Origin: a virus
Lineage: Duplodnaviria; Caudoviricetes
Reading direction: 5' to 3' (one strand)
Length of the DNA stretch: 64,000 bases
Virus record (IMG/VR): IMGVR_UViG_3300021426_000073
Coordinates: 48,064 to 112,063 of that record
Shown here: in pieces, positions 7,453 to 63,501 of the stretch
Layout: each line of letters starts with the position of its first letter
How positions within the stretch are numbered: the stretch's first letter is position 1
Notes under the pieces: generated by a model
Databases searched by the model: none
Told to the model about the DNA's origin: nothing
Seen by the model: only the letters and a program-made list of their open reading frames with translations
Program-made: the position numbers and the translations under genes

Positions 7453-7517
7453 CATACACTAGACAAAATTCACACGATATATATTGCAATATATAAATAA
7501 ATTTAAGGAGGTTCATT

Positions 7518-8312
7518 ATGGCTTTAGATGGAAATGAAGGAATGGTAATGCCAGTATCACCTATGTATGGTGGTAATGGTGGCGGATTCGGAAATGGTTT
7601 CGGAGACGGCTCTGGCTGGTGGATTTTACTTCTCTTTATCTTATTAGGCGGTTGGAACAACGGCTTTGGCGGTAATGGAAATGGCACTCCATATGTAGTT
7701 GGTAACACTGTACAAGATGGTTTTAATCAAGCTGCTTTGACAAGTGGTATTGGCGATATTCAGAGTGCTCTTTGTAATGGTTTCGCAGGTGTAAATTCAA
7801 ATGTGGCTAATGGATTTGCCCAAGCAGAAATCGCAGATAACTCAAGACAAATTGCTAATATGCAGCAATCATTCGCAAATCAGACAGCTATGAATAGTGG
7901 CTTTAACGCTCTCCAGTCACAGCTAGCAAGTTGTTGTTGCGAATCAAGACTTGCATCAGCCAACTTACAGAATGTAATCCAGTCTGAAAATTGTGCTGAC
8001 AGAAGTACTATTAGCGATGGCATAAGAGATATTCTTGTTGCTAACAACAATAATACTCAGCGTATTTTAGATCAATTATGTAATGATAAGATTGATGCTA
8101 AAAACGAGAAAATTGCTGATCTTGAGAGACAACTTACAATGGCTAACTTATCAGCTAGTCAGAATACTCAAACACAAACACTACTTGCAGATAACTTTGC
8201 TCAAACAAGTGCTTTAGAGCAATATCTTGCACCAGTACCTAGACCTGCATACATCGTGCAGAATCCTAATTGCTGTGCTCAGAATGTAGGCTGTGGTTGC
8301 GGTTCATACTAG
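7518..8312 (+). CDS. Gly-rich, hydrophobic-segment, coiled-coil Cys-rich protein (spore-coat-like)
   Basis: AAGGAGG RBS; GFG repeats, WWILLLFILLGGW, CCC, terminal CC..CGCG. Confidence 0.75.
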   Translation: MALDGNEGMVMPVSPMYGGNGGGFGNGFGDGSGWWILLLFILLGGWNNGFGGNGNGTPYVVGNTVQDGFNQAALTSGIGDIQSALCNGFAGVNSNVANGFAQAEIADNSRQIANMQQSFANQTAMNSGFNALQSQLASCCCESRLASANLQNVIQSENCADRSTISDGIRDILVANNNNTQRILDQLCNDKIDAKNEKIADLERQLTMANLSASQNTQTQTLLADNFAQTSALEQYLAPVPRPAYIVQNPNCCAQNVGCGCGSY

Positions 8313-8329
8313 AAATGAGGTGATTACTT

Positions 8330-8812
8330 ATGGCTGAATATACAAACGCTGCTATTCAATCTGTATCACCTAGTCAGCCTGTATTATTGAATACAACTAT
8401 TGGCTGCCCAAAAGGATATGTTATCCATCGTGAGGGAAGTGGTATCTTAACATTAAGGGGCATTGTAAATTGTCCTAATTCATGCTTTGCAAGATACCAA
8501 GTAACATTTAATGGCAATATAGCCATACCTGAAGGTGGTACTGCTCCAGCTCCTGTTAGCGTTTCTATCGCAATTGACGGAGAACCGTTAACAACTAGTA
8601 AGGCTATTGTTACGCCAGCTGCTGCTGCAGAAGCTCCACCATCAACAAACAACTACTTTAATGTAACGAGTACGGCTATAGTAACTGTACCTAGAGGCTG
8701 TTGCTTTAATATTTCTGTAGAGAATACAAGCGAAAGCTTAACTCCAGCTACTACTCCAGCTCCTACAATTAATGTAGCAAACGCTAACCTTGTTGTTAGC
8801 CGAATAGCGTAG
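8330..8812 (+). CDS. Beta-sandwich protein (possibly BclA C-terminal/C1q-like)
   Basis: RBS; alternating beta pattern YQVTFNGNI...VSIAIDGE...NANLVVSR. Confidence 0.6.
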   Translation: MAEYTNAAIQSVSPSQPVLLNTTIGCPKGYVIHREGSGILTLRGIVNCPNSCFARYQVTFNGNIAIPEGGTAPAPVSVSIAIDGEPLTTSKAIVTPAAAAEAPPSTNNYFNVTSTAIVTVPRGCCFNISVENTSESLTPATTPAPTINVANANLVVSRIA

Positions 8813-8828
8813 AGAGGAGGATTTTGAT

Positions 8829-9203
8829 ATGATAGATGCTATGGATAAATTATGCGACACTCTATACAAAGCATTAGATGAAGTATCTGAAAAACCATTA
8901 ACAACTTCTTCTTTAGATAATATTTTTAAAATTGTTGGTTCAATTTATAAATTAGAGAAGATGGAGAAGAAAGATGATGGTTATTCATCAAACTCTTCTT
9001 ATGCTAGAGGAAGTTCCATGAGATATGGTCAGAATAGTTACGGACGTGATTATATGCGTGGTAATTCGAACGACTATATCATGGGTACAAGCAGACATAA
9101 CAAAGAAGATGTCAAAATGGAACTTTACAAATTAATGCAAGATACTGATGATGAAAATGTCAAAGATATGTTGCAGAACTTTATAAGAGAAATGGAAAGA
9201 TAA
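8829..9203 (+). CDS. Hypothetical protein, last gene of + strand module
   Basis: GGAGG RBS; helical ends with Ser/Tyr/Arg/Gly-rich linker. Confidence 0.75.
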   Translation: MIDAMDKLCDTLYKALDEVSEKPLTTSSLDNIFKIVGSIYKLEKMEKKDDGYSSNSSYARGSSMRYGQNSYGRDYMRGNSNDYIMGTSRHNKEDVKMELYKLMQDTDDENVKDMLQNFIREMER

Positions 9204-9224
9204 ATCCTATCTGAATACTATGTC

Positions 9225-13021: not shown

Positions 13022-13702
13022 CTAATCACTCCGTCTTTCCAATTCATCGTTACGCTCTCCAATCTTTTTGGTTAAATCTTTTACTATTGATTTATCTTCG
13101 AAATACAAAGATTCTGCTCTCTTACCAACTTTCTTTCTGGCTGATGTAGAACCGTTAATTAAATAATCGATATGATCTACTATGTTAGGATTAAGATTTA
13201 TAAACTTTGTATTAGGTTTGTGTTTTCTTATATACCTTTTAAAAACAGAATCATCACCACGTTTCTTTTCTTTCCAGTCATCATACTCATTGGAATTGTA
13301 ATAATGTAACGCACAATGATTAGCTAAATAATTAGGTATCTTTATACAAGGAAAAGAAAACCATAACATTGATAAATCATTACTTTCTTCGTTATAAAAG
13401 TCTTTACGTTTTTTATCATAAAAAGTACAAAGACCACAAACTAATCCATCGAAATCGTTATACTTTTGTGTTTTTTCATAAAAATCTCTGCTAATGCAAA
13501 CATCATCTTGTAAATGCCATGTGTGTCCATCTTCAGGAACATATTTAAATGATTGCATACAAGACTCTAAATTGCCCACACCATGCCTGTCTATCCAAAT
13601 AATAATGTCATCAACGTCTATTCCTTGCTCAAGCATTGACGGTACTAAAAATTCATCTACATACCATTCACGTTGAGGACAAGCGTGTATTATATAATTC
13701 AT
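13022..13702 (-). CDS. Glycosyltransferase-like protein (GT-A fold)
   Basis: WHLQDDV acidic motif, SFPCI, DD, PNIVDHI. Confidence 0.6.
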   Translation of the reverse strand: MNYIIHACPQREWYVDEFLVPSMLEQGIDVDDIIIWIDRHGVGNLESCMQSFKYVPEDGHTWHLQDDVCISRDFYEKTQKYNDFDGLVCGLCTFYDKKRKDFYNEESNDLSMLWFSFPCIKIPNYLANHCALHYYNSNEYDDWKEKKRGDDSVFKRYIRKHKPNTKFINLNPNIVDHIDYLINGSTSARKKVGKRAESLYFEDKSIVKDLTKKIGERNDELERRSD

Positions 13703-13821
13703 ATTTTTAAAATCCTTTTATTTTGCAATGAATTTTGTCTAGTTTATATTATCTCTAAGGGCACGTTTATTAACGTGCCCAGCAGAAAATAATATGAAAT
13801 CAATCAGCTAATATAGCTTAA

Positions 13822-13898
13822 CAGGAACTCGGGGAATCGAACCCAAAAAACGACTTCTGATTTTGGAGATCAGCGTGCTACCATTACACCAAGAACCT
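13822..13898 (-). tRNA. tRNA-Trp(CCA), atypical or possibly pseudo
   Basis: CTGAT-CTCCAAA-ATCAG anticodon arm; two U-U mismatches in acceptor stem; long U-rich variable loop. Confidence 0.7.
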
Positions 13899-14009
13899 AT
13901 GTACGGTTTATAGTTAACCGCAAACTGCACATCACCGATATTAGCCTGAAGCATTAATTAACTTAACACCTCACTGAGTTTCGGTATCATTTGCTCTCTA
14001 ACTCTCGCA

Positions 14010-14083
14010 TAAGGATGACAAGATTTGAACTTGCAATTTCAGAGTACCAAACTCTGCGTTCTGCCAGATTGAACTACATCCCT
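14010..14083 (-). tRNA. tRNA-Pro(TGG)
   Basis: Full cloverleaf AGGGATG...CAGAG-TTTGGTA-CTCTG...GTTCAAATC...CATCCTT-A. Confidence 0.9.
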
Positions 14084-14105
14084 AATAGGTATATATACCT
14101 TAGAA

Positions 14106-14186
14106 TAGGAAAGAAAGGATTTGCACCTTTGAACCCGAAGGAACGGTTTTACAGACCGCCTGCTTTGTCTACTTGCATACTTTCCT
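14106..14186 (-). tRNA. tRNA-Tyr(GTA)
   Basis: GCGGT-CTGTAAA-ACCGT arm, long variable arm, acceptor AGGAAAG/CTTTCCT. Confidence 0.85.
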
Positions 14187-14195
14187 AAGAGGTTT

Positions 14196-14345
14196 CCGCA
14201 CGGCAAAAGTCTTTCGATGAAAATCCGTATGGCAATTTTCACTCTATTCATCAAGAGGTATAAAAAATGAATAGTATGTTAACCAACAAAAAAGTTGATT
14301 GCTAACGACTATATGCGGCAAAAGACTTTCGTGGAAAATCCGCAT
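14196..14345 (-). ncRNA. Two copies of a covarying hairpin motif (unknown ncRNA)
   Basis: 14196-14232 and 14313-14345 share CGGCAAAAG-NN-TTTC-NN-NGAAAATCCG with compensatory changes. Confidence 0.5.
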
Positions 14346-14604
14346 CAAGAAATTTTCCTATGATTGGATTGAATCAAAATATATGAAAAAAATATTGGAG
14401 TATATTGTTATACACTTTCTTAATGATAACTACAACAACGGTTTGCCTATCCTAAAAACAAATATAAGAGAGTATAATACTCAGTTACAAACAGTTGCTA
14501 AGAAAAGTTTGTTTTATCCCCATTATAGCTATGCTACAAAAAGCAAACCGTTGTTAGCTATCAATTTTAAAAATCCTTTACAGTGGGTTTAAGAGTAACT
14601 TATA

Positions 14605-14712
14605 ATTACTCCACGCACTCTGAGTCTCCCACGGCTAAAGTCGAAGGATTCTTGGGACTAGTAGATTAATATCCACTTTATTACCAAGCTAACCGGACAA
14701 CTCCTGCCCTTA
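14605..14712 (-). ncRNA. Orphan TnpB-type omegaRNA / IS200-IS605 right-end remnant
   Basis: AGGGCAGGAGTTGTCC-GGTTAGCTTGG...CCCAAGAATCCTTCGACTTTAGCCGTGGGAGACTCA; same architecture as the tnpB right end at 26242-26335; no adjacent tnpB. Confidence 0.7.
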
Positions 14713-14913
14713 TATTTATATTATAAAAATAATATCATCAATAATTCACATAGCACTTGGTGCTAAACAATGTCAATGTAAATATATGTGTATAGGAATT
14801 AATACAATAAAAACAAAAAAGGTTTGGTTTTCACCACTAAATTAATGGAAGATTTTTCTACCAAATGCTATGTGAAATGCTGCATCAATTCTCTATGATT
14901 TTTGTCTAGTTAA

Positions 14914-14986
14914 CGGCGGTAATAGGATTTGAACCTATATCATTGGAGTCAAAGTCCAATATACTAACCACTTGTACTATACCGCT
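14914..14986 (-). tRNA. tRNA-Gln(TTG)
   Basis: TTGGA-CTTTGAC-TCCAA arm; complete cloverleaf. Confidence 0.9.
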
Positions 14987-15106
14987 AAAGTAGGACGGTT
15001 TTAAAGTCAACCAACTACTTATCTTTACTGTTGTTTTGTTATCAGTATAATTGATTATTTTAAGAAAGGAGGCTAGTCTGGAACTAGCATGCCTACGATA
15101 AAAAAA

Positions 15107-15180
15107 TTGCGGAGATTGGATTTGAACCAATGACCTTGAGTTTATGAGACTCACGAGCTACCGAACTGCTCTACTCCGCT
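15107..15180 (-). tRNA. tRNA-Met(CAT) with initiator-like body
   Basis: AGCGGAG-TA-GAGCAGTTCGGTAGCTC-G-TGAGT-CTCATAA-ACTCA; 1-72 mismatch. Confidence 0.9.
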
Positions 15181-15255
15181 ATGTTACCAAACGAAAAATA
15201 AACATTTTCGAAGGGAGTTCAATAAATATTCACTTGTTTCATTTGGTATGCCTTA

Positions 15256-15286
15256 AGTATAAATGATGGTGTGAATTTTGTCAAGT
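15256..15286 (-). promoter_or_regulatory. Sigma-A promoter of tRNA cluster; -35 lies inside the repeated 15-bp motif
   Basis: TTGACA (15284-15279), 17 bp, TATACT (15261-15256). Confidence 0.8.
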
Positions 15287-16908: not shown

Positions 16909-17430
16909 CTAACCAAGAATCTTAACAATGCTTTGCTCTAATGCTGCCATATCACCACTGTTGTCAATAACATCAACATTGTACTTGCCATTGTTAATTT
17001 CTTCTTCAAATTTTGTAAATTGCCAAGCTTCACTTTGTTCTCTTGCTTGGTATATTTCCTCGTCATTTAAACGCTTCAATATGCGTTCTTTGCGAGTTTC
17101 GTTGTCAGCCTTAACATATATAACCTTAAATCTCATATCGGGCATATTGCTTAATAATTCACGCATACCGTTAGGGTCTATAACGTATACATCATTAGTC
17201 AACATTTGTATCTTTGTTGCAAAGTACAAATAACCATTTATTTCTGTCTGACACACTCTTCCGTGAATTTGGTCTAGTTCTTCCTTGTCTAAAAAAACAT
17301 GAGTATTCTCACTAGGGTGTCTTTTAGGTCTATTTGTATAAGACTTAAGTATTCTCTTTCTGTAATGTTTTTCAATAAATTTTGCAACGGTATCTTTTCC
17401 AGAACCACTTCTACCTAATATCAATATCAT
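16909..17430 (-). CDS. Guanylate kinase-like nucleotide kinase
   Basis: GRSGSGKDT P-loop; SYTNRPKR; YVIDPNG. Confidence 0.85.
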   Translation of the reverse strand: MILILGRSGSGKDTVAKFIEKHYRKRILKSYTNRPKRHPSENTHVFLDKEELDQIHGRVCQTEINGYLYFATKIQMLTNDVYVIDPNGMRELLSNMPDMRFKVIYVKADNETRKERILKRLNDEEIYQAREQSEAWQFTKFEEEINNGKYNVDVIDNSGDMAALEQSIVKILG

Positions 17431-17638
17431 TAAGTTTGTCCCCTTTCAAATTTAGTAACCAATCTGCTGAAATATTTAATGCTTCACATAAAGTTTTTAA
17501 ATTATTTGTTTGAATAATTCTCTGATCATTTACCCATCTGCTAATAGATGACTGCGGTAAGTTCATTATGTCAGCCAATTCGGTCTGTGTCATTCCATTG
17601 TATTCAAGTGCTAATTTAATCTTTTCTCCTACAGTCAT
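17411..17638 (-). CDS. XRE-family HTH regulator
   Basis: MTQTELADIMNLPQSSISRW...LCEALNISADWLL. Confidence 0.85.
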   Translation of the reverse strand: MTVGEKIKLALEYNGMTQTELADIMNLPQSSISRWVNDQRIIQTNNLKTLCEALNISADWLLNLKGDKLNDIDIR

Positions 17639-20600: not shown

Positions 20601-22925
20601 CTTTTCTTGGCTCTTGCTCTAATGCTTTAATAATAATTTCAGTAACATCATCTTGTATGGTATGGTCACAATTAGGATATTTTATACATTCCTCACAAAC
20701 TTCCGAATGATAATCGCTACTTGCTTTTAAACAATACAATGCTAATTTTCTTTCTTCATCTGTCATTTAATCACTCTCCTTTACTTACATTGTATAAGGT
20801 TTTAATATTCATACAATGAAATTACTTTTTCTACTACATTATCATTTTCATCAAGCACATCTTCTTCAAAACAGCCTATTATTTCATCTTGCTCCTTTAC
20901 ACTACACCTTCCGTGTGAATACAACATCACTCGTTGATTTTCATCATACTTTTTCAACTCTTTAATTAATTCTCCTACTGTCATTCCTTATTCCTCACTT
21001 TCTACCTTATCAGCAATGATTGCAAGGCTTTTGGATATATCTGCAAGCATTGTAGCAATTGCACCAAGCGAAAATGCTACTTTTTCCTCATAAGTTCCAG
21101 ATGGCTCGCATTGCACTCTTCTATCCATTTCATTAACAACCATTCTATTTTCTTCAAGTCTTGTCATGCCTACACCTCACTTTCCTTATCTGCTTCAATT
21201 ATTGTTGGAGCATCATCAATGTCAGCCATTTCATCATCATATTGACAAGCTCTGCATCTGACTCCATTAATACTGTTGCAATCTATACATCTTGATTTTT
21301 TTATCTGTTCAATTAAAGCATCAGCATCAATCAATCTTCCGTGACTCTTTGGAAGTGGTGTGCCATTTGCAATTGTATATACAGCGATATTTCTAATACT
21401 GCAAAGTCTAGTATTACCAATCTTTATATCATTATAATCTTCTTCATTTATATCAATTACTATCTGCATCGGTTTCCTCACTTTCTGCCTTCATCCTTTC
21501 GTATAAGATTTCCTTGGAACAATTACCGTCCTCATATAACCAACAAGCGTCACAACCAGATGGTTGGTCAGATATATTATCACAAAGGACTTCAACTAAA
21601 TTCTTTAATTCGCTAATTTTTTCTTTATCTGTCATATTATTCCTCACTTTCTGCCTTGTGGCTCGTATTCTTATATTACAGTACATTTAACAAAATCTGC
21701 ATCAATCTCAAATATATCGCTATATATGTCTGCATCTTCATCATCACAAATTATCAGTTTTTGTTTGGCATCTCCTTTGTGCATTACTTCTATTTTCCAA
21801 ATGCCCTTGCCGTCTTTACCATATTCAACATGGATAATCGTGTCATCTGTAAACAAGATGCGAACCACCGAATCGAAGCATCCTATTTCATCGTAGGGAT
21901 ATATATTTTGCTCTGTTTCAATTTCCACTAAATCATCTGACATTCCATATACTTTAGTTTTCATTTAATCACCTACTTTCTAAATATTGGATACAATGCC
22001 CCAACAGACATTCCTATAATCATTAATGCTATTAATATCTTCATACTATCTCCTTCGAAAAACATCATCGTTTATTTGCTTATCACTCCTACTTGCAGCT
22101 CTTGCGTATAATGTTTTTACACAATTATGTGGATTGCCATTACACTTCTTAGCATCGTTACAAGCACCACCATGACAATAATAAATCACACCTTTATCTG
22201 TTGGTATTTCCTCATAACGTGGGCAATGTTTACCCATTAAATTTACTGGCTTGTTTGGATTATGCCTAGGTTTTCCTTTTCCCATTTGCTTTATCTCCTA
22301 ATAGTTTTTTCTAAAAAATGAATTAAATCTTCTTGCGTTGTATATCCTGTAACTGTTAATTCAACTGGATCATTTAACTTTCTTGTAGTTGTTATATTAT
22401 TTATCATTGAAAGTGATGGGCAATCTTTTTCGTTATCTTGAAATAATTTATGTACTGTTGTTAAAGTTTCACCATCAACACTTATTGTTAAATCATAAAA
22501 TATATCTTTCATTATTCGTCACCTCTTTCTGGATAGAATACTTTACAATGCATTCCACTATTAAGAATAATTCTATTAGTTCTGTCTAACCCTTCCGATG
22601 TGACATCAACCATCGTCGTAGAATTATCAAACGGCATATATTCAGGACTTGATACTAAAGATACTAAATCATAAGTTGACATTTTCTTTCTTTTTGATTT
22701 GTTGATTTTTAAGAAGTTATCAAACTCGTACTTACAACTAGGACATAAGTCCATTTCTTCGCACTTTTCTCCCTCGTAATACATATTAGTTTTTTTGGCT
22801 TTTGTAGGAGTTATCAAGCGAAAAGATTCTTCACACTCTGAACCACATCTATCACAAATACATACTTTTTTAATCATTTGTTTCACCTCTTTGAATTTTG
22901 TCTTGCAACTCCGCACAAGAATCAA
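17644..22925 (-). other. Array of about 20 small hypothetical genes, several with Zn ribbons
   Basis: Tightly packed ORFs with RBS, e.g. 17644-17943, 18235-18492, 18493-18819, 18800-19156, 19299-19520, 19638-19907, 19897-20172, 20173-20766, 21170-21481, 21671-21964, 22046-22285, 22291-22512, 22512-22925. Confidence 0.7.
20802..20984 (-). CDS. Hypothetical protein, paralog of 44321-44503
   Basis: MTVGELIKELKKYDE.QRVMLYSHGRC...VISLYEY in both copies. Confidence 0.75.
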   Translation of the reverse strand: MTVGELIKELKKYDENQRVMLYSHGRCSVKEQDEIIGCFEEDVLDENDNVVEKVISLYEY

Positions 22926-24360: not shown

Positions 24361-25602
24361 TTAAACTACATTATTAAGCCAATATATTTTATTATATTTC
24401 CAAAGTAACTTACATTTTTTAGCATTAACCTTTTTACAATGCTTTGTAGGACTTTGGAAATTCAAAGCATTTAGTTCGGGATATAGGGCTGTAACATAGC
24501 CTCTATGCGTTTCTCCATTTTTGAATGTGTATTCCACTAAATCTCTATGCTTGATACCTAAAACATTATCTGTATTTGCTTTGCTTTGCCTACGCATAGG
24601 TTTAATAATCCACTCTTTAATATCCGTAGTATCAGGTTTTAAGTTTGTAATACAGACAGCGTCGTTTGAATGTGATTTATCTATATCCCAATCAATACGC
24701 TTATTTGCGGTATCGCCACCATTAGTTAAATACAAAGTACCAAGTTCAGATAATTGTTTTCTTAACCAAGTTTTACCTATCATTACGTGTTGTGCATAAT
24801 TAAGTTTTTTTGTATCATAAGTAAAAAGCATATCGAAATAATGTTGCATATACTGTTCTTCTTTACCTTCTGTCTTTTGATGGCATTTGCTACATAAAGT
24901 AATCATATTATCAAAAGTGTTAGAACCATTTAATCTTCGTGGTTTAATATGATGTACTTCAAGTTTAGTATTAGTTTTACCACATTCCATACACTTATAA
25001 TTATCTCTAAAGATTACCGCTTTACGTATGTTTTCATCTAATCTATTAGATTTTTGATACTTCCACCTATAAGGTTTGTATCCATCAGTTAATGCTCTTA
25101 TATCTATCGCAACATCTTCAAGCCAATAAGAATTAATATTGATCCATTTATTAAGTTGGTTGACAACTCTTAATGTTGCTTGACGTTTTTGTAATATACT
25201 AGGAGCGATACGTTCTTTTCTTTTTAAAGATTTACGATTATTAAATCTAGCTTCACGATACCTTTTATGGTATCTATGGTATCTTCTATAACCTCTACGT
25301 AATTCCATTAAATGCTTTACATCATTTCTTTGTTCTATTGTTCCTTTGAACAATGTTTTGTTTTTAGTCTTGCATTTCTGCACTATTGCAATACCTACGT
25401 GTAAACCACCATCATCTATACCACATCGTATTTCATCTTTGCATATTTCATCATCAGGTATAGTGCGTTTAAGTTGTATCACCATAGGATACTTACTAAC
25501 TAATTTAGCCTTACCTTTTCGAATCATATACCATGCCTTTGTTTCTTTTGTTGGTGATAATGGTTTTCCATCAGCATCCAATACAAATGCATAATTTGTC
25601 AT
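24361..25602 (-). CDS. iscB: RNA-guided endonuclease IscB
   Basis: PLMP-like N-terminus ([12 protein letters not shown]), RuvC-I GIDDG, Arg-rich bridge helix, RuvC-II LEDV, HNH CMECG..EVHH..GSN..N..LCSKCH, RuvC-III SHSNDA. Confidence 0.93.
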
Positions 25603-25607
25603 TTCTG

Positions 25608-25860
25608 ACCACCTTCCTTTCGGAGTATTTTTCTTCTTGCCAATGTCGGATAGAGGATATGTGTTTCTCTGTTATCATCGCAGGGCATTAGCGATGTTTC
25701 TTGATTGGCACTCACAGAGCTTCAGACTGAAGATTACATCTAAAGGTGTGTATTTACCTTACTATCTAACGTAGTTCATATCTGCAACATACCTTTCGGC
25801 AGTAGCAGTCACTTAGGCTTGAAACCTACTGTTAAGTCCATATCTCAAAAGACTTATTGT
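25608..25860 (-). ncRNA. IscB omegaRNA (HEARO-like); 5' end uncertain
   Basis: Non-coding structured region upstream of iscB with AGCCTAAGTG..ACTACGTT..CAGTCTGAAGCTCTG..ACATTGGCAAGAAG..CCGAAAGG elements. Confidence 0.8.
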
Positions 25861-25904
25861 GCCCACTTTCGAGTATGCTTAATCACATATTTCTATGTTT
25901 TTGG

Positions 25905-26096
25905 TCACTTAACAGTTAGTCCCATCATATAAACTTTTATAATATCTTCAATGGGCTTAATTGTCCCATCGTATAAACTTTTATAATATCTGTATTTAGG
26001 TAATTGCAGCAATTTACTTCTAATAGAGCAATCTTGAATAACAGTTCTGTCCACAAAGTATTCTTGCAACAACTTTCTACAAGGACATTCAATCAT
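25905..26096 (-). CDS. Hypothetical protein
   Basis: GGAG RBS preceded by an exact 15-bp motif copy. Confidence 0.5.
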   Translation of the reverse strand: MIECPCRKLLQEYFVDRTVIQDCSIRSKLLQLPKYRYYKSLYDGTIKPIEDIIKVYMMGLTVK

Positions 26097-26169
26097 ATTT
26101 TTTCTCCAAATGAATTTTGTCTAGTTTGTTTGTAAAAAAGAATCACTCTGTATAGAGCAATTTAGATTA

Positions 26170-26223: not shown

Positions 26224-26225
26224 TA

Positions 26226-47741: not shown

Positions 47742-47809
47742 TGTTTAATCTCCTTTTTATTATATTATGAATTATGTCTAGTCAAATTTAAAATAAATAG
47801 GGATTATAA

Positions 47810-48217: not shown

Positions 48218-48253
48218 CGCAAAGGCTTATTGTCAATATGAATTTTGTAAAGT
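48208..48253 (-). promoter_or_regulatory. Sigma-A promoter with motif variant 2 bp upstream of -35
   Basis: TTGACA (48236-48231), 17 bp, TAAAAT preceded by TG; ACTTTACAAAATTCA at 48253-48239. Confidence 0.7.
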
Positions 48254-48496: not shown

Positions 48497-48559
48497 GTAA
48501 AAAACCTCCTGAATTTAATTTAAAAACACACCCTTACACATTGCAAGAGTGTGTTTAAC

Positions 48560-49471
48560 TTATTCGTCAAATTGATTTTCGTAACGCAATATAAATTTTT
48601 CAGCCGAATACATTATTCCATATATATCCTCTATTTCTTTTTTATGAGTTAATATTGTGTTTTTAATAGTGGCAGTATCTTTATATTTCTTTTTGTCTTG
48701 TTTATATAAACGCTTAATCATATCTATCATACCACTATCTCTTAACGCTTTAGGCATATATGCTTCTGACTGATTCATAGTGCTTCTTATTCTCATTGAT
48801 ATGTATTTGTATTTTGAAAGCAATGTTGTGTCTGGAAGATTTAATTCTCCATCTGATATTTTTGAATTGTATTGTGCTTTAAATATATATCCACTAGTAG
48901 GATTTTTGTATTGATAATCCCTTGCATCAGTAAAGCTATAATACTGAGTTGCTTCACAAGATTCAATTCCGTATTCAATCAACTCTTTACTTACTTTCCT
49001 TACTTCCCCAGATTGTAATGTAATGGTACAATCCTTCTCGTTAATATCTTCTCTTTTTATATAATGCATATCTCTATAATGGTTTCCCCTAATACCCTCA
49101 AATAATGCTAAACAAAAGAATTTGTCTGATGCATTAGGAAGACTTTGTATTTGAATAAGCAAATCTTTTCTAGAAATAATTCTAGTATCTAAATGAATTA
49201 TACATTGTTTTAAATCTTCAAATGTTATTGTTTTATATACATTTCTTATTTTATCATTCTTTTCATTTATCAGCCAATCAACGTATAGTCTTAACTGATT
49301 ATTAGTTGATCTCAAGAAATCAAGAGAAGGACTGTTCATTTCTTTATAATAAGATTTAACTTCTCTTTTATTCATTTTACTTGCTGATAATTTTCTCTTC
49401 TTTAAATCCTTAAATCTTTTTTCTAATAATGGTGAGTACTTTGTTTCTAAATATTCTTTGTATCTCTCCAT
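48560..49471 (-). CDS. MrpR/YopR-like repressor (degenerate tyrosine-recombinase fold)
   Basis: S...L...N..L..YVDW, L.N..DK....ALFEGIRG and L..SG motifs recalled as resembling SPbeta YopR; lacks HxxR/GH catalytic set. Confidence 0.6.
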   Translation of the reverse strand: MERYKEYLETKYSPLLEKRFKDLKKRKLSASKMNKREVKSYYKEMNSPSLDFLRSTNNQLRLYVDWLINEKNDKIRNVYKTITFEDLKQCIIHLDTRIISRKDLLIQIQSLPNASDKFFCLALFEGIRGNHYRDMHYIKREDINEKDCTITLQSGEVRKVSKELIEYGIESCEATQYYSFTDARDYQYKNPTSGYIFKAQYNSKISDGELNLPDTTLLSKYKYISMRIRSTMNQSEAYMPKALRDSGMIDMIKRLYKQDKKKYKDTATIKNTILTHKKEIEDIYGIMYSAEKFILRYENQFDE

Positions 49472-49499
49472 TGTTTCACCCCCTTTTCGAGATACAAGA

Positions 49500-49528
49500 A
49501 TTATACCATTATAAAGTCAAAATTACAA
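49500..49528 (-). promoter_or_regulatory. Dedicated promoter of MrpR-like gene (no 15-bp motif)
   Basis: TTGTAA, 17 bp, TATAAT preceded by TG. Confidence 0.65.
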
Positions 49529-50536
49529 TCTTAATTTTGCAGCCATAAGTTGAGCTGACTCAATTCTTTCTTTGTTTTCCGTTACAATATATCTTTGAGT
49601 AGTTGATACATCTGAGTGACCAACCATACGTCTAACTTTTTCAATATCACCAGTAGCCTCGTACATTTGAGAGCAAAAACCTGCTCTTATTTTATGAGGA
49701 CTTACTTTATATCCTAAAGCATCTTCACAATACTTTTCAACCAAATAAAATATTGTGTGTCCTGAACATCTATTTCCTTGTCTTGATATAAATAAAGCGT
49801 TTTCGTCTTTTATAGTTGGAAGAGTACTTCGCTTATCTAGCCATTTCTGAATTATATATATAACTTCATCAGACAAATAATATTCTTGAAATTTATTTCC
49901 TTTATCTATAACTTTCAATGTTTGGTTATCGAAATCAATATCATCAATATTGATTGTGGTTAATGCAGTTCTTCTCATTCCAGTAGTCATAAGCAACACC
50001 ATGATAGCCATATCTCTTTCTTTGATTTGTCTACTTTTTGCAATATAATCTCCAACTCCTGACTCTACAGAATTAAGTATCTTAACGAAATCTCTTTCAG
50101 TTAGTAATAATCTTTTACTATTGATTCTTGCAAGATCACGATTCTTTGGCTTATCAATATTTAACATATAATTTTCTTTGATGTATTCGTTTCTTTTTAA
50201 GTAGTCAAAGAAACTTCTTAATGCATACCATACAGATAACTGATAACTGTCAGACGTTTCTTTTATATTTCCTTTATTATCTGTTTTAGTTTGTATTCCT
50301 ATCATATATTTGTTTACATTTTGTCTAGTTATATTTTCTGGATTAATATTATTTACATCAGAATCTATACTCTCTAAAAAGTTAATTGCTTTATTTAAGT
50401 ATTCTCTGCAAGAAGTTATCTGCTTATTAGATGCTCTTAATCCATAATAGAAATCACATAAAAAGTCAGGATAGTTGTTTAATTTATCTTCTATTTCCTT
50501 AGCAATTTTATTGTTAAGACTAACTCTTCCGTTCAT
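49523..50536 (-). CDS. XerC-like tyrosine recombinase
   Basis: TGMRRTAL, DKGNK, PHKIR, VGHSD, TQRY: full R-K-H-R-H-Y set. Confidence 0.9.
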   Translation of the reverse strand: MNGRVSLNNKIAKEIEDKLNNYPDFLCDFYYGLRASNKQITSCREYLNKAINFLESIDSDVNNINPENITRQNVNKYMIGIQTKTDNKGNIKETSDSYQLSVWYALRSFFDYLKRNEYIKENYMLNIDKPKNRDLARINSKRLLLTERDFVKILNSVESGVGDYIAKSRQIKERDMAIMVLLMTTGMRRTALTTINIDDIDFDNQTLKVIDKGNKFQEYYLSDEVIYIIQKWLDKRSTLPTIKDENALFISRQGNRCSGHTIFYLVEKYCEDALGYKVSPHKIRAGFCSQMYEATGDIEKVRRMVGHSDVSTTQRYIVTENKERIESAQLMAAKLRL

Positions 50537-51732: not shown

Positions 51733-51763
51733 AATATAACTCTTTGTGTGAATTATGTCAAGC
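51733..51763 (-). promoter_or_regulatory. Sigma-A promoter with -35 inside 15-bp motif
   Basis: TTGACA (51761-51756), 17 bp, TATATT (51738-51733). Confidence 0.75.
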
Positions 51764-54700
51764 GTTATTCTAAAGTAATTAACTCTGGATTAATCAAACA
51801 TATTGCAACTCGCTTTACCAGTTCATTATCTGTACTTACTATATAATCAAACGTATCTTTAAATCCTTCAGCAAATGTCATATCTACTATATGGCAAGTA
51901 TACATATCTAATAATAAGTGATTTACTAAATCTTTTATATTAGAATATGTTGGATAATATTCATGCTTAGTTTGAGTGTCAATTAGAGCAAAGTATCCTA
52001 ATGGTGTAATTCTATAATCCAATTCCATAAATTCTAAAAATTCTTTAAGCGTCATAGCCATTCTCCTTTCTATTTCAAAACACCAAACATTTTCTGATGC
52101 TTACGAATTACTTTCATATATAATCTAAAGTATTCATCTCGATCCAAATTATCATCGTAAGCCATTTTCTCTATAAAATTTTCAAAGTCATCATCTGACC
52201 ATCTTTCTGTTATACTGTCTATCGCTTTATCATAATCCATGCTGCTCTCCTTTCTAAACTATTTTAAGATTACTGCTATCATCAATACTGATTATCTCGG
52301 CTTTTATATCAAATGGCAATTTCTCAAATCCTTTTTCGATATCATTCAAATAATCATTTACTTTACCTTTTTTATTTATATTAACTTCAAATACTGTATC
52401 CAAAATATTATCTTGAATAATATCATCAATTACACCTTTTAAATTCTCATTATAATGAACTATAACACAAGCTCCGATTTGATTTTGGTTTGGATAAAAA
52501 CCAACAAAAATTATTTTTTTACTCATATGTAAACTCCTTTCTACACATACTGATAATCAGTAATCTCATTAAATGCTTTCACAATATTATCTGTATCTAC
52601 CCAAGAAAATCTTCCGAGGTCTTCAATGTAATCAATCATGTTTCGATATACTTCCTCTCCGTATTCAGTAAAGCCACACGGTATATCATCATCGTATATA
52701 AATAATTCCTTTCCTTTAGTATCAAATGGTTTCATAAATTTTTGTAAGCTCATAACATTTTCTCCTTTATAATAAATTATTCTCTGCAATGTAATTTTCA
52801 AACTGTTTAATTGTTTTGCATTTATTAAACTCTTCGTTAGTTTGTCTTGATGGATATGTAACATTGTTTATTCTAATTTGCCAACAGTTGTAGTCTGGAG
52901 TAAAAGACTTATAAATAAAATCTCCACTCGGAGAATAACCATCTGTTGATATTTCTTTATGTGCCCACATTCCGTTTGCACAACCAGTCGCTCCTACCTT
53001 GAAACATACATAACCATCAAATCCTAACTTGATAGATTCCTTTAAGAACTTTCTCATATCCATTAATTTGTTAAGTGCGATTGTATTCTGAAACCAATCA
53101 AATATATTTAACTCATCGCATACAGTTGTCATATAAAAACATTTTTTGAATGGTGCATTTTTTAATTCTTCAATTCTTTCTTCTAGGTCCTTTAATACAA
53201 ATTTTGCGTTTAATCTTTCATATTTACTCATTTGCTTATCTCCTTTACTTTTGACTATGTGATACAATTGCATCTATAATATTACTAATAGGTGTACACT
53301 TTCTTGCTGCAAAAGATGTTCCTGAATTATCTACAATTTTCATTGTAGCGTTGTAATCATCTTCTGTAAGATAACTATATGTTTCTAAAAATTTCTCTTT
53401 GCTTAACACGAAGAAGTCATACATCTTTTCCCAATCGTTAGTAAATTCATTTCCAGTTTCGATAAGGTCACAAGTAAGTCTGTGACCAAACATATTAAAT
53501 GATTCAACATCTGACATATTTTCCAAGTCTGACGCTAAACCATCACATCTATCATTTACGTAATCTGAAAATGTATCTTCAAGTTCATTAAGAGTTACGA
53601 GTTCTTTATAAATTGTAGACGCTAAAAATGATTTTCCGTATATGTCTATATGTCCATATTTGCTATTCATATCTTCTTCAAATTGTTCCTGAAATTCTTC
53701 GGCACAATTTAACTTAAACCATTCAGCACATTCAGCTGCATTATTAAATTTCTTATCTCCATCAATGTAATAAATCTTTTCCATATCTTAATCCTCCCAA
53801 GATTCTATCTTTGCATAAATAACTTTTTCATCTGCTTTTGCTTTTTCATATTCTGCATATGCATCTTCATAATTTGTATGTTCTATTTCGCTATAAGGTG
53901 TATATAACGTATCGTCTATACCAAAAGGAATAGTTACAAATACTTTATACTTCGTTATAGGCAAACATTTCTCTATCGTTTCATAATCTCCTACGTATAT
54001 AGCCTTAAGCATATCTACATTCGTAATAAGATAGTCTGCAATTTCTGTTTCCGTCATACCTTGTTCATACATAAATCCAATAGCGTTGTTTAACAATACC
54101 AACATTTTGTTTAATACTTTATCCATATTAATTTTCTCCTTTCAAATTACTTATAATTTTTAACGCTCCTTCAATTCCAATAATATCGTTTACCCATACG
54201 TTGTCTGCATTTTTCTCGTCAGCATACTCTTCGTCCCACCAACTTGCATTCTCTTTACAAAACTCAAGAGTGTTTTTTAATTTCTGTTCTACATCATCAA
54301 GTTCGTTATGATAATCAGTTTCATTTTCTACATCTCTTTCCTTTACAACCACATCGCTGATATGATTTAACAAGTTAATCACATCTCCTAATCTGTATTG
54401 TAGGTAAGGTTCATAGTCATCGTACTCTTCATAATGACTGTATAGTTTAGATAAGTCTTCAGCGAATCCTTCAATTAATTCAGACAACTTTCCATTAAAA
54501 TTTAAGTTAAAATTTAAGTCTTCTCCATAAATCTCTTCTATAAATTTCCCTACGTTTTTAATTACTAATTTTGACATATCAATTTTCCCTTTCTAAAACC
54601 AAATTTCTTCAACCATTTCATCGTCTATTAAAGTGAACTCATAATCAAGCTCATAAAGAGAATCCCACAAATCATCGTAGACCCACTCATCAGGATGTTC

Positions 54701-58012: not shown

Positions 58013-60813
58013 ATCTTTCTGGATATGGGTGATAATCTGTATCTTTTATATCGATTTCAATGTTTTCAACAATGTCATCAACCATATCTTTTATGTCATC
58101 AGCCTTTCTTCTCATATCATCAATGCTTTCAAATGCCTTATCCCATAAAATATCTTTAATCTGTTCCTCTAAATAACTCATAATCAAAACTCCTTTCGTA
58201 TGAATTTTGTCTAGTCCATCTCGCTTAATTCGTATATTACTTTCCACAACAACATATTTTCTTGTTCAATAGTTAGTGGTATACTGTACCACTTTAAATC
58301 ATCTTCCATTGAGTTGTTAATATTAAACCTAAGCGAAATGCTTTCTTTTTCGGTATTTACAATAACATAAATATTGTAATAAAGTATGTTGCTTTCTTCA
58401 GGAAAATCAGTCATTCCCATTAATCTTCTTACTTGGTCACATTTATCGTAAAGGTCTTTGGTGCCTTTACATTGAAAACTAAATTCAACATCTGTATCGT
58501 GTGTGAAATCTTCAAACACAATTCCCTTAACGTCCATATCTGTATCTCCTTTCAATTTCAACATAGTCTTCTAAAAGCATTTTAAGATGGCTAATTTTCC
58601 ATCTATGTAAGTAACCATCGCCAGTATAATTTTTTGTTTGGCTTGTTAGCATTTTGCCTTTTCTTGCTTTTGTTTCCCACATTAAATACTGTCTTACTGT
58701 ATTGTGGTAATGTCCGTCATTCCTTACTTCAAGGTATTTGTTTCGGTTTCTTTTGTTTCTATAAATTGTTATTGTAGTCATATCTATATCTCCTTTCGTT
58801 TAGGATAGAGCATTACACTCTATCCTTTATGTTGATTTGTATTTCTTTACAAATCGTATTAAGTTTTCTCCACACTTCATCGTAGTTTGTGTTTGCAATT
58901 ATTGTTTCTATATCATCAAGTTCCTTTGGAATACCACGTCCCATCGCAAGTCCTAACAAAGCAAACACGCCTGCAAATTCTTCGTCAGTAGCACCCATGC
59001 CATCTGCGTTATTTAACCATAACGCAATTTCAATTAATTCATTCATACACTAACCTCCTATTGATAATTTAAAACCTTTTGGAATTTTGCTTCCAGCATT
59101 TACAGGACACACCAAACAGATTTTGTTTTTAGTTCTGAACACCAATGGTGCTTTTGGATTTAACATATAACATATTGCATCGTCACCAATAAACTCAACG
59201 ATTTCTCTTAGGTATAATGCGTTGACTACTGGCAAACCTTTTCCGAAACTATACAGTACAGGAACTGTACGTTTTCTTCCTACAAGTTTAGTTATCTCTT
59301 CTTTAATTTCCTTAAGTGTTGGATACTCAATTTCTTTTCCATCACGCACTATATCATCAACAATTTTGTTGATAGATTTCAATTCCCTAGTATCTTCATC
59401 TAAAGGAACTATAGGTTCTTTAGACATCATAAACATCACACCATTGCACACACCATACATACCGAGATTTGAGTTGTGTATGTAATACGCCTTGTTGCTA
59501 TGTGGTGCTTGCACCTTAATCATTCGTTCTAATTGTTTCTCCATAATTTCTCCTTTCACTTAAAAGGGAACTAGCATTGCTAATCCCCTAAAACTAATGT
59601 GTATACATTTGCCTTTATGCCTTTGTTCTTAAGGGCTTTATACACATAATCTTCAGCTGTATCTTCGCACTCTTCTAACTCAAGCCATTCATCATATGAC
59701 TCTTGTGCGATTTCCATTGCGTTATCATAATCAATATAGTCTTCAACAGACACAGCAAATTTAATATCACTTACTGTGCCTTCAACTTTAAATGTTGGTA
59801 TATCAAATACATTTGCGTGTTTCATATTATTCTCCTTCCGTTGCATAAATCCTACATTCAATTTCGTTTTCGAGTAGTCTATCATAGATATACTCACACA
59901 TTGTAGCATCGCTTGAATCATCTTCAAACCATTCTTCAAATGCTTTCTGTACTATCTCTTCTGCCTTTTCTGTTTGTGAATATCTGACTTCGACTAAAAT
60001 GTCAAAGCCAGATAAATCACCATATACAGTAAAACAATTCATTGGTTTTACATTATTTAGTTTCATCTGTATCTCCTTTCTCGTCTGCAAATACTTTACG
60101 CATATCTTTAGTAAACTCTGCAATCATATCATCAATAGTTCCCTTCACGTAAAGTTCTCTGTTTTGCCATTTTTCATAAGGAAATCCAGCACAACATAAA
60201 AACCTTTTGCCTATATAACTATCGTCTAAAATCCTATCACTTGTTGCTGTGAATTGTACAAAGTGATTATATACTAATAAATCATTTTCGCTTTTAATAT
60301 CAATTAAATAATACTGATATTCTTCAGAACCATATCCTTGATTTGCAAACACTTTACATTCATCATAAGTTTTTACAATTAACTTTTTAAATCTAGCAAA
60401 CACAACTCCGAATGCTGATTTCTCGTATTTCTCACACTCTTCTTTTGTCTTAAATTCTGTGCCGTCATCTGCTTCGTAACCAATAATCTTTTCAATTGTT
60501 TCTGTTCTTTTTAATTCTTTCATATTCATTTCTCCTTTACTGTGCAATTACATATTCTGTGAACAAGTTATCATCTTGTACAAACTGTATATGATTAAAT
60601 AAAATCATATCGTCTTCAATTGTGTAACCTATCATTTCCGTTAGGTAACGGAGAAAATAAGTTTTAATATCATCGTCAACAGGCACTATTTTGCACCTGT
60701 CAACTCCTTTTGCTCTAGCCTTATCTATCTTGCTACATTGTTTATCGATTGCTTTTGCTAATCGCTTTCTCTTATCTGTTTTCATTTTTCTAAAATTCAT
60801 ATCTGTTCTCCTT

Positions 60814-61263
60814 TCAAATCTTTCGGCATTTTGTTTTGCCTAGTATAACGTGTGCAGCAAGGCTTAATCCCATTGCTTGACACGCAGTATCAATTTTCTT
60901 TGTTACCGCTATATCCTTTTGTGATGGATTAAGATTTCCACTTGGGTGGTTGTGTATCAATATTAGTTCAGGTGAACCAAACAACAATGCACGTTGTATG
61001 ATTTCCCTAATGCCAAACATTGACGTGTTAATCGTTCCGTGGCTAATCTCACTTAAGGCGATCAAGTTTAAGTTAGAGTTGCAATACATTCCGAAGACGT
61101 GTTCTTCAGCTAAATCACACAACCCATTTGCCTTACAAAACTTAAAAATCTTTTCTGTGTTATCAAAGCACGTTCGCTTGTCTACCGAGTAAGTATCCAT
61201 CTGCTTTTCGAGATAAGGCATTCCTACTTCGTTTTGCTTTAGTCGGTAATAATTCATTTTCAT
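60814..61263 (-). CDS. RadC-like JAB/MPN domain protein
   Basis: EE, S.GT, IHNHPSG...PS..D, HVI. Confidence 0.85.
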   Translation of the reverse strand: MKMNYYRLKQNEVGMPYLEKQMDTYSVDKRTCFDNTEKIFKFCKANGLCDLAEEHVFGMYCNSNLNLIALSEISHGTINTSMFGIREIIQRALLFGSPELILIHNHPSGNLNPSQKDIAVTKKIDTACQAMGLSLAAHVILGKTKCRKI

Positions 61264-61264
61264 A

Positions 61265-61462
61265 CTAACACTCCTTTAAATTGTTTTCCTTGATAAGTCT
61301 GCGAATGATAACTCCATTCATACTTCGTGGAATCGAGATAGTTCTCTTTCCATTGGTATAAATCTTATGTCCGTTATTTCTCACATAGACATATCCATTG
61401 TGCTTTAGCATTTTGCTTAATGCTCTTTCGTTTACTTTGTTCATATTCTCACTTCCTTTCAT
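61265..61462 (-). CDS. HicA-like protein
   Basis: L..NGY..VR.NGHKIY...TISIP. Confidence 0.6.
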   Translation of the reverse strand: MKGSENMNKVNERALSKMLKHNGYVYVRNNGHKIYTNGKRTISIPRSMNGVIIRRLIKENNLKEC

Positions 61463-61492
61463 TTAAAGGGGAGAGCAATTGCTCTCCCTTAA

Positions 61493-62260
61493 TTAGATTA
61501 CATATGCATTATCAACTAACTTGTCTTCTGCACTAACTTCATTAGCGTTTACTTCGAGTACCATTTCCTTGATATCATCAATGTCAATACCGTCTAACTT
61601 TTTCATAACGATAACTTCATGAATACTTGAAGGTATAACTATAAGTTCCTTTGCACCCATAATCGCTTTAAGTTTATCTACGGCTTTCTTTATCGTGATG
61701 ATACTTGCACCTCTAAAACCATTTTTCGTTGTTACGAATGTGAAATTAGGGTCTGTATCCGTTGCGGTATCAAGAGATACTTTGCCTTTTCCAGATAAGA
61801 TACTCTCAATAGTTCCGATTTCAGCAGATTTATAAGTGTTCTCTTCTGCCTTTTCCCATAACTTCGCTCTATTTAATGAGCCGAAGGCGGACTCTTCTTT
61901 TAACTTGAATGAGTTTTCATCGGATACCTTAACGTATAAATACTTTTCAATTCCGTCAAATTCTGTTTCACGCTTAATTAAGTTTTCAGTTCCTTTTGCC
62001 TGTACACCTACCATTACGTTTTCATACACAAATTTAGGCGTAATATCATCTGGGTTAAAGTCAGGTTGCTTTTTGCACAACTCTATGATTTCGTCAATTG
62101 TTTTATCCTTTACTGTACTTGCATAAAGGTTCACATAAAGGTTTTCAGTTTGCTTTACTGTGATACAAGGAATCACATTTCCATTTTTAATTGCTGTGTT
62201 GATTCGTGCATCGAATCCTTTTTTTGTAAGTTCCATTTTGATTTCTTCAAAGTTCATCAT
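61493..62260 (-). CDS. DUF5688-like protein
   Basis: KNG, GAS.I, IPSSIHEVI, MV.EVN..V..ED.L. Confidence 0.65.
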   Translation of the reverse strand: MMNFEEIKMELTKKGFDARINTAIKNGNVIPCITVKQTENLYVNLYASTVKDKTIDEIIELCKKQPDFNPDDITPKFVYENVMVGVQAKGTENLIKRETEFDGIEKYLYVKVSDENSFKLKEESAFGSLNRAKLWEKAEENTYKSAEIGTIESILSGKGKVSLDTATDTDPNFTFVTTKNGFRGASIITIKKAVDKLKAIMGAKELIVIPSSIHEVIVMKKLDGIDIDDIKEMVLEVNANEVSAEDKLVDNAYVI

Positions 62261-63501
62261 AATTTACCTCTTTCTCCCCGTCTTGCCGATAGGTCAGCAC
62301 TATTATTAATTTTCGCTTTCAACAAGTTCTTCAAATAACTCGTCAAGTTCCACATCATCGATATCAATAATGCCGTAGTAGTTTTCAACCACTTCATCGA
62401 TAAGTTCGCCTAAAGTTACAGGATATTCTTTGTAGTCTGTTGAAACTAGATTTCCGTATTCGTCATACTTAAACCAGTCACGGTTAGGATTAAAAGAACC
62501 ATAGTTCTTATTTCCGTTGTTGTCGTAAGTAAAACTATCTTCATCTTGACCGTAATAAATCAGGTTCATCAATCTATCGAAACTCTCTTGGTCACTTGGT
62601 TGATTATGTTGATAAAGCTCTTCCATTGGGTAATATCGGTTATTACCTAAGTAACCATTCCACCAATCAAGTGCTTCGCAAAGTTCATTAAATTGCTCTT
62701 CATTGTCTGCAAGTTTCTCTTTGATTTTTTCAATAATCTGTTCTCTCATAATTTCACCTTTACCTTTCTAAAAACTTAACTGTTCTTTCAAGTGCTTTCA
62801 CTTGATTACTAAGTTCCATCTGTTCATCACAAAGCCTACACATTTCATCATATGTAGGCTTGCTTTCAATTTGCTTTGCAAGTGAATTTTGTCTAGTCTT
62901 TAATGTTTTGATTTGTTCCTGTACCGTCATTATCTTTCCTTTCCGATGTACATATCATAAAGCACATCTCTATAACTCTTTGAGTGTTGCAATGGGTGTA
63001 GGTGGAAATCTGCATCATCAGGTACATTGTCAAAATAACACCCGATATTTGAGTAAAAGCGTTTCTCTTCTTGCTTTTCTCTTTTTGCAAGTTCCCTTAA
63101 CAAGTTCATTGCAAACTCGTTTTCGATGATTTCATCTTTCTTTCTCAGCACTCTAATAATTACTTCGTTGACATATGGTCTTAACCATACACCAAACAAC
63201 TCTTCAATTTCTAATTTCTCTTCATACCTCATTTCATCGTATGTCATATCTACCACTCCTTTACATAATTGATAAATTTACTATTAGGTGTTTTGTGTTT
63301 GAATTGTATTCTCACACTTTTGCCTTCGCTTAATTTCGATAACAACTTTGTTTTGCTTGATGTTATCCATACAAGTTCAGGGAGTATAATATCATTTGTT
63401 CCAAACACCACAACTTTTTTTCTTTCACACTCTATGATGTGTTTTACCTTTGCCACTCTAGTGCCAGCTACAATTTCATATCGTGCCATAATTAGATCAC
63501 C

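Follow-up and report, generated by a model that had tools for sequence, protein, structure and literature searches.

A dispersed, transcription-oriented 15-bp element in an uncultured animal-gut phage as the probable operator array of an MrpR/SroF-type repressor

A 15-bp word, ACTAGACAAAATTCA, is scattered along the genome of an uncultured virus (Duplodnaviria; Caudoviricetes), where it forms part of or adjoins promoters, stands, without a promoter, at the starts of genes, or lies inside genes, and by analogy with the Bacillus phages SPbeta and phi3T it is probably the operator of a master repressor of the MrpR/YopR/SroF family that the same genome encodes (48560-49471, minus strand). The DNA analyzed (64,000 nucleotides, hereafter the window) comprises bases 48064-112063 of the 112,063-bp viral contig IMGVR_UViG_3300021426_000073 of IMG/VR, which carries 127-bp terminal repeats; coordinates prefixed with g follow the numbering of the whole contig and all others that of the window. 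The sequencing runs that hold the contig are animal-gut metagenomes, bovine and sheep among them. Its genes are arranged in two arms, a rightward (late) arm at g4.9-57.3 kb and the rest of the contig, which is read leftward.

The exact word occurs five times in the window (7458 on the plus strand; 13729, 26111, 58201, and 62883 on the minus strand), compared with 0.00 copies expected from 100 shuffles, and seven times in the whole contig. An earlier sequence-only reading of the window had listed these five positions together with 12 near-copies, and every one of them was recovered where it had been placed. The near-copies in the window, all on the minus strand, carry one mismatch (14896, 15272, 17264, 26170, 36532, 38986, 41410, and 47768), two mismatches (22892, 36816, 48239, and 50315) or three (51749), and the one at 50315, which lies inside a gene, had been overlooked. 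Across the contig there are 17 copies with up to one mismatch and 21 with up to two, for which arm-wise Markov simulations expect 0.02 and 0.87, respectively, and no exact 11-, 12-, 13-, or 14-mer of the genome is commoner than those supplied by this word. Its edges are sharp, as the information content is down to background beyond the 15 bases, which rules out that it is part of a longer repeat or a mobile cassette, and the flanks show weak preferences only at positions -7, -1, +15, and +16. The word is asymmetric, without a dyad, and was said to flip with the coding strand, which it does: all 21 copies with up to two mismatches are co-oriented with the local genes, as against 58% for words of the same composition (P ~1e-5). 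With 90% of the genome coding, about 15 of the 21 fall fully or in part outside called genes (binomial P ~2e-11). Sixteen of these copies are in the early/replication arm and five in the late arm. Matches with three mismatches at 5870 and 35361 are probably due to chance, while the one at 51749 is credible as a real site because it has exact promoter geometry and a syntenic counterpart with only one mismatch in a relative of the phage (L128, see below). A second frequent word, AGAAAGTGAGGAATAA, is merely a strong ribosome-binding site (RBS) context.

In five copies (g5395, g24427, 15272, 36816, and 51749), the T(A/T)GACA of the word is the -35 hexamer of a promoter whose -10 hexamer follows at 17 bp, and in four copies a -10 matching at least five of six consensus positions is found at exactly that distance (P = 1.4e-4). 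The sequence-only reading had proposed this role for 15272, 36816, and 51749, and the geometry is present at all three. At g5395 an exact copy provides the -35 of a promoter with a TG-extended TAATAT -10, located 45 nt before the gene of a YonO-like polymerase. The copy at 15272-15286 is the -35 of TTGACA-17-TATACT (15284-15256), which heads an operon of five tRNA genes, that at 36816-36830 supplies the -35 of TAGACA-17-TATATT (36828-36800), a promoter with an extended -10, and that at 51749-51763 is the -35 of TTGACA-17-TATATT (51761-51733), which heads a block encoding a 377-aa protein, an integrase-family protein, and the candidate repressor. Two other copies touch a promoter, as had also been claimed. 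The one at 48239-48253, conserved in relatives L127 and L128, ends 2 nt upstream of the -35 of TTGACA-17-TAAAAT (48236-48208), and the one at 26170-26184 covers approximately +5 to +19 of the promoter TTTACA-16-TGgTATAAT (26223-26196). TTGACA is found at the -35 position in three copies (g24427, 15272, and 51749), all of them of the -35 class; the copy at 48239 reads TTTACA and adjoins the separate TTGACA promoter downstream of it, and the remaining copies, including six of the seven listed below that precede an RBS, read TAGACA or a single-base variant of it (AAGACA at 22892, TAGACC at 17264, and TAGACG at 26170). Every copy with TTGACA at the -35 position also has a -10 at 17 bp, which suggests TAGACA as the consensus for binding and TTGACA as an optimization of the promoter. 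A scan of 13-27 kb and 36-52.5 kb gave seven best promoter-like sites on the minus strand; the motif is part of or adjoins five of these, and another is the promoter of the repressor gene itself. It is ruled out that every copy is simply a sigma-A promoter, as a -10 at 17 bp is present in only five, and the possibility that the word contains a cryptic sigma-A -10 (the internal CAWAAT) was rejected because the -35 sequences upstream of it are no better than background. A second near-consensus promoter, TTGACA-17-TATTAT (51954-51982), which is free of the motif, lies in or at a 98-aa open reading frame (ORF) just upstream of the 51749 promoter.

A different context is seen in the copies that stand 14-26 nt before a start codon and have no -10, as the sequence-only reading had noted for seven of them (13729, 22892, 26111, 38986, 41410, 47768, and 58201), and several of these directly follow a hairpin or terminator. 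The exact copy at 13729-13743 comes after the strong hairpin (GGGCACG..CGTGCCC) that ends the tRNA cluster and 26 nt before the ATG of 13022-13702, the copy at 22892-22906 lies in the 3' end of the upstream gene and 14 nt before the ATG at 22877, and the exact copy at 26111-26125, the second of a tandem pair with 26170, follows a weak hairpin with a T-run and precedes the ATG at 26096 by 14 nt. The copies at 38986-39000 and 41410-41424, both conserved in L127, each follow a hairpin and are situated 23 nt before the ATG of a dUTPase gene (38549-38962) and 25 nt before the ATG (41384) that heads a replication-organizer/loader block, respectively. At 47768-47782 the word comes immediately behind a strong terminator (47824-47793), with 26 nt separating it from the ATG at 47741, and L127, L128, and L131 have kept both terminator and motif while their flanks diverge. 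The exact copy at 58201-58215 is 19 nt from the ATG at 58181. To the same class belongs an exact copy at g8066, which overlaps the stop codon of the polymerase gene. In the late arm, the exact plus-strand copy at 7458-7472 begins 5 nt beyond the stop codon of 7249-7452, and 45 nt lie between its end and the ATG at 7518; no canonical -10 is present at 16-18 bp. The others are inside ORFs, namely 17264-17278 in 16909-17430 (AAA_18 kinase-like), 36532-36546 in the first codons of 36306-36557, 50315-50329 in the integrase-family gene, where its function is doubtful, and 62883-62897 in the small ORF 62760-62930, or, in the case of 14896-14910, lie 2 nt downstream of tRNA-Gln (14913-14987) within the tRNA operon.

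The protein put forward as the reader of the motif is the 303-aa integrase-fold product of 48560-49471, which had been called MrpR-like and which proves to be a relative of MrpR/YopR/SroF by both sequence and structure searches. With phmmer against the PDB, it matches SroF of phi3T (9rd5_H of entry 9rd5; E 3.9e-7) and MrpR/YopR of SPbeta (8a0a, E 1.5e-5; 8bj6, E ~1e-5), and in a Foldseek search with its AlphaFold model the top seven matches are all SroF/YopR/MrpR (E 3e-9 to 4e-7), while true recombinases (Xer/Cre/Int) appear only from E 1e-2. The protein lacks a match to the Phage_integrase family of Pfam, in contrast to the product of the neighboring gene (E 3e-30), and an hhalign comparison of the repressor family with this neighboring integrase gave no usable alignment. 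On our own reading, a position in the FEGIxG segment may be equivalent to Arg-I of the recombinases; it varies across a 40-sequence alignment of the family and is R in the candidate repressor, S in MrpR, and D in phi3T SroF. Judged from the phmmer matches and the predicted fold, the product of 48560-49471 groups with MrpR/SroF and not with active recombinases. The MrpR-type family comprises 689 clusters at E < 1e-3, and the precomputed Pfam family MrpR_C_cat (PF22823.3) is listed for homologues that are 99, 87, 63, and 56% identical to the candidate. Directly upstream, in the position of YopP, is the gene of the 337-aa Phage_integrase-family protein (49523-50536, minus strand). The repressor gene has a motif-free promoter of its own with an extended -10, TTGTAA-17-TGgTATAAT (49500-49528, minus strand), and also a terminator. 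The repressor gene is the bin of the phage with the deepest coverage in two gut metatranscriptome runs, both from one study, and one complete RNA contig of 940 nt spans 48553-49492, with its end about 8 nt past the -10, a pattern that gives a weak hint that the repressor is expressed alone in lysogens. No transcript starts at motif copies were given by the RNA contigs from these two runs.

Three relatives whose repressors are 87% (L127), 63% (L128), and 56% (L131) identical to the candidate keep the motif at syntenic places. In alignments with them the terminator and the motif are conserved, but there are differences in the spacers, in how far away the RBS lies, and even in the gene that comes next. 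Such co-conservation, as far as sequence goes, fits the published cognate repressor-box pairs, which are the SPbeta repeated element (SPBRE) in SPbeta and Phi3TRE in phi3T. In SPbeta, in Mammaliicoccus phage phi116 (repressor ~24% identical), and in a relative with a 31% identical repressor, the word occurs at control level only, and the motif is thus neither the SPBRE nor a phi116 word. Motif and repressor are kept jointly in L127, L128, and L131, and no co-variation with more distant repressors emerged from the 20-kb pieces. Candidate operator words in L129 and phi116 were unconvincing, and a repeat at 16061-16342 of L145, a viral contig encoding a 24%-identical MrpR relative, was rejected as an operator, as it is a CRISPR-like array of five ~32-nt repeats with ~33-nt spacing. 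An exact-word scan of IMG/VR gave single chance matches only, among the matches listed, and no relatives were found by either a single-protein scan of viral contigs or a profile scan of genome contigs.

These observations can be combined in the following model. By analogy with phi3T SroF, the repressor would be a monomer when bound, wrapped around a single non-palindromic site, and transcription of its gene from its own constitutive, motif-free promoter is what one would expect if the gene is kept on in lysogens. Given the geometry of motif and promoter, a repressor bound at any of seven sites (g5395, g24427, 15272, 36816, 51749, 48239, and 26170) would keep sigma-A RNA polymerase off the promoter or stop it at about +5, and use of the motif as the -35 of the 51749 promoter, which heads the repressor operon, would imply autoregulation. 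The other copies would most likely be extra anchors that halt read-through transcription, like stoperators, or that raise the local occupancy by repressor. The more specific proposal that these non-promoter copies combine repressor anchoring with a roadblock to read-through transcription is held only tentatively, by analogy, and is favored because their polarity is strict without being constrained by a promoter, because they lie at the starts of gene blocks, and because of the precedent of mycobacteriophage L5. In the sequence-only reading, the array had been interpreted as the network of a phage repressor that blocks promoters and also elongation across the lytic operons; this interpretation is supported in part, in that the array, its polarity, the protein family, and the SPBRE/MrpR analogue all stand, and promoter occlusion at the seven sites would follow from geometry once a protein binds. 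If the model is right, lysogeny control of the SPBRE/MrpR (SroF) type is not confined to Bacillus phages but is also used, with another operator word, by an uncultured phage of the animal gut, and the copies provide a map of the regulon, which would take in the YonO-like polymerase, the tRNA operon, genes of replication and recombination, and the operon of the repressor.

Several points weigh against this assignment. Analogy and co-occurrence are what connects the protein with the motif, and since the relatives with the motif share synteny throughout, it co-occurs just as well with any other conserved regulator. The AlphaFold model is of moderate quality (predicted local distance difference test score 72, from a five-sequence alignment). 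An hmmscan of the candidate gave no Pfam family (MrpR_C_cat, PF22823, or MrpR_N_CB, PF22822) at E <= 0.01, and a search of the whole contig with PF22823.1 had no match, the homologues being matched only by the newer, precomputed model. The RNA evidence consists of contigs from a single study, which cannot prove a transcript start. There is no intergenic LexA box (GAAC-N4-GTTC) in the contig, and no Sar- or AimR-like partner was recognized there, although Sar proteins are small and divergent and failure to detect one is weak evidence; the neighboring 377-aa protein has no match in the PDB (AimR) or Pfam. Lastly, a roadblock placed directly after a terminator seems redundant.

The motif could instead be the operator of another regulator of the phage, either a 169-aa protein with an XRE helix-turn-helix (HTH) and a zinc ribbon (33587-34096) or a 75-aa XRE protein (17411-17638), but this is unlikely. 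Both carry HTH_3, and the larger one, with its possible C-terminal zinc ribbon, could read an asymmetric site with two domains in the manner of L5-type repressors (PMC9283540); moreover, co-occurrence cannot separate regulators that are encoded by the same syntenic relatives. Small XRE proteins, however, usually bind dyads as dimers, and the motif has none. SPbeta also has HTH proteins (YonR, YopB, YopO, and YopS), yet it is MrpR that binds its repeated element, and the hallmarks of a maintenance repressor, which are the constitutive promoter of its own, the dominant RNA signal, and the motif at the operon promoter, are all on the MrpR-like gene. Somewhat less probable again is that the RBS-adjacent copies are single-block promoters with short leaders for non-host machinery, such as the 871-aa YonO-like polymerase that the phage encodes (g5455-8070). 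Several copies are located between a terminator and an RBS without a sigma-A promoter, so the downstream genes need some route of transcription, and the strict polarity and the 14-26 nt to the ATG are compatible with a promoter. In SPbeta, however, YonO reads the late operon from a single start site (PMC5467207), whereas 16 of the 21 copies here are in the early/replication arm; furthermore, MrpR binds the analogous element of SPbeta, which does not occur in the region where YonO starts. The motif is also the sigma-A -35 of the polymerase gene itself and of the repressor operon, no second conserved block comes after it, and its internal CAWAAT has no convincing -35 for company. A phage sigma factor was ruled out as the reader of the motif, as no Sigma70_r2 (sigma-70 region 2) was found in the contig.

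Co-orientation would equally be explained if the motif acted in RNA, as a nut-like antitermination signal or a processing signal on the transcript; all copies are on the sense strand, and that at 26170 is at about +5 of its transcript and just before a hairpin and T-run. This is very improbable, given that the five -35 copies are upstream of their own transcription start and so outside that RNA, that most copies come after terminators and not before them, and that neither conserved secondary structure, conserved flanking sequence nor an Rfam family match accompanies the motif. It is scarcely credible, finally, that the motif is a polar signal of DNA metabolism, Chi- or KOPS-like, oriented with replication from an iteron-rich zone. 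The two arms do diverge from an origin-like, gene-free, repeat-rich region (g3.3-4.8 kb), so that the polarities of replication and transcription would coincide. Chi and KOPS words, however, are 5-8 bp long and are not known to prefer intergenic DNA, whereas this motif has 15 bp, is intergenic in about 15 of 21 copies, and is phased at exactly 17 bp from -10 hexamers. The repressor-operator assignment is the probable one.

The rightward arm of the genome contains the terminase, very large structural genes, and the 871-aa YonO-like two-barrel RNA polymerase, and the leftward arm about 125 small early, replication, and lysogeny genes. The polymerase matches phrog_8308 and, by tblastn, proteins of Thomasclavelia and Enterocloster phages annotated as two-barrel 'RdRP' or 'RNA-dependent RNA polymerase', and it has no sequence match in the PDB or Pfam. 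The gene-free zone of ~1.4 kb between the divergent arms (g3250-4800, outside the window) has a GC-richer part (g3250-3950), an (AATAAA)n tract (g4160-4290), and ~24-bp iteron-like repeats (g4440-4760), and is a candidate origin or packaging region; it has no match in Rfam, and a motif copy at g4056 is followed by a hairpin. The five phage tRNA genes (Met, Gln, Tyr, Pro, and Trp; 13821-15181) form one operon of ~1.5 kb, which is headed by the motif-bearing promoter 15284-15256 and has more motif copies inside it and at its end. A TnpB gene (OrfB_IS605 and Cas12f1-like TNB, 26305-27435) lies beside an IscB-like gene (RRXRR and HNH, 24361-25602), and the promoter 26223-26196 with the tandem motif copies 26170/26111 sits between the two, which may place an OMEGA element (24361-27435) under the repressor array as well.

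Two known systems can be compared with this array. In L5-type phages, the operator of the early promoter overlaps a TTGACA-like -35. The repressors of cluster A mycobacteriophages are monomeric two-domain HTH proteins that bind asymmetric sites, and in L5 reversal of a site abolishes repression (PMC9283540). As in the stoperator arrays of cluster A (L5 gp71; TipsytheTRex, PMC9283540), there are more than 20 asymmetric sites of 13-15 bp in both arms, located at promoters and in short intergenic gaps and strictly oriented with transcription, and the repressor is predicted to be monomeric. The proteins are unlike, however, with an HTH and a 'stoperator' domain in cluster A, whose hosts are Actinobacteria, and a tyrosine-recombinase fold here, and the elongation block that was demonstrated in cluster A is proposed here from anatomy, by analogy. 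The phage may work like a stoperator system, but, going by the predicted fold, it is not a member of the L5 gp71 family. Among the matches listed in the 'stoperator' literature there was no SPbeta-like phage. A broader conjecture, also by analogy and about as tentative as the roadblock itself, is that integrase-fold MrpR/SroF repressors act as orientation-dependent elongation roadblocks at promoter-less copies in SPbeta-like phages generally and that this evolved independently of the mycobacteriophage stoperators; if the roadblocks are real, two unrelated repressor folds would have converged on the same genome-wide silencing design.

The closer comparison is with SPbeta and phi3T, and the sequence-only reading was right to name SPBRE/MrpR as an analogue. 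In SPbeta the 10 MrpR peaks obtained by sequencing of affinity-purified chromatin (ChAP-seq) lie on the 15-bp SPBRE (Kohm et al. 2023, PMC10516654), and SroF is a monomer that encircles an asymmetric box, each phage having its own box (Chmielowska et al. 2025, 10.1101/2025.11.27.690993); the words 'roadblock' and 'elongation' are absent from the latter preprint. Word counting in SPbeta recovered the SPBRE de novo as AAAWAATATGTATAT at ten intergenic loci, whereas a guessed sequence, CTCGATAAAATT, was wrong. Where this could be checked (annotation at 63.5-84.5 kb), the loci are upstream of genes with MrpR ChAP-seq peaks (yonP, yonT, yonX, aimR, yopM, and yopV). Five SPBREs are embedded in promoters of the TAGACA-17-TATAAT type, including the yonP-yonO promoter, and at yopM and yopV the SPBRE is immediately flanked by an annotated stem-loop before it and the RBS after it, with the -10 destroyed (TATAGG) and no TAGACA. 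Both contexts of the present array, promoter-embedded and stem-loop-element-RBS, are thus found in SPbeta, and the 'operator plus stoperator-like' layout was therefore already present in this type phage. Why repressor sites should lie behind terminators and before an RBS, without a promoter, is a question now raised for both phages. The -35 context TAGACAAA is common to all the SPBRE promoters of SPbeta (NC_001884; e.g., 64139, 99588, 110908, 116157, and 129212), and it forms the core of the otherwise unrelated operator word of this phage; this sharing could stem from a common ancestry of promoter-operator units or from nothing more than promoter constraint. Sequence conservation in SPbeta also reaches beyond the published 15-mer on its 5' side (ACAAATAC), in keeping with the 24-26 bp footprint of SroF.

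Like SPbeta, this is a large phage with a YonO-like polymerase, in which the repressor gene follows an integrase-family gene (yopR is downstream of yopP), the promoter of the polymerase gene carries the element (yonP-yonO there, g5395 here), and a tandem pair precedes one gene (yonX there, 26170/26111 here). With SPbeta and phi3T it shares an integrase-fold repressor and a dispersed, non-palindromic element of ~15 bp that is co-oriented with the downstream gene. The element sequences are unrelated (AAAWAATATGTATAT in SPbeta, an A-tract box in phi3T), and the conserved core covers the -35 hexamer here but the spacer and the -10 in SPbeta. The repressor is only ~18-24% identical to known MrpR/SroF repressors, and, unlike in SPbeta-type systems, no LexA-controlled Sar or arbitrium genes were recognized. 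The array is a further instance of the SPBRE/MrpR(SroF) system described in 1999, 2023, and 2025, and what is new is its operator word and its larger number of copies, about twice that of SPbeta (21 here vs. 10 ChAP-seq peaks).

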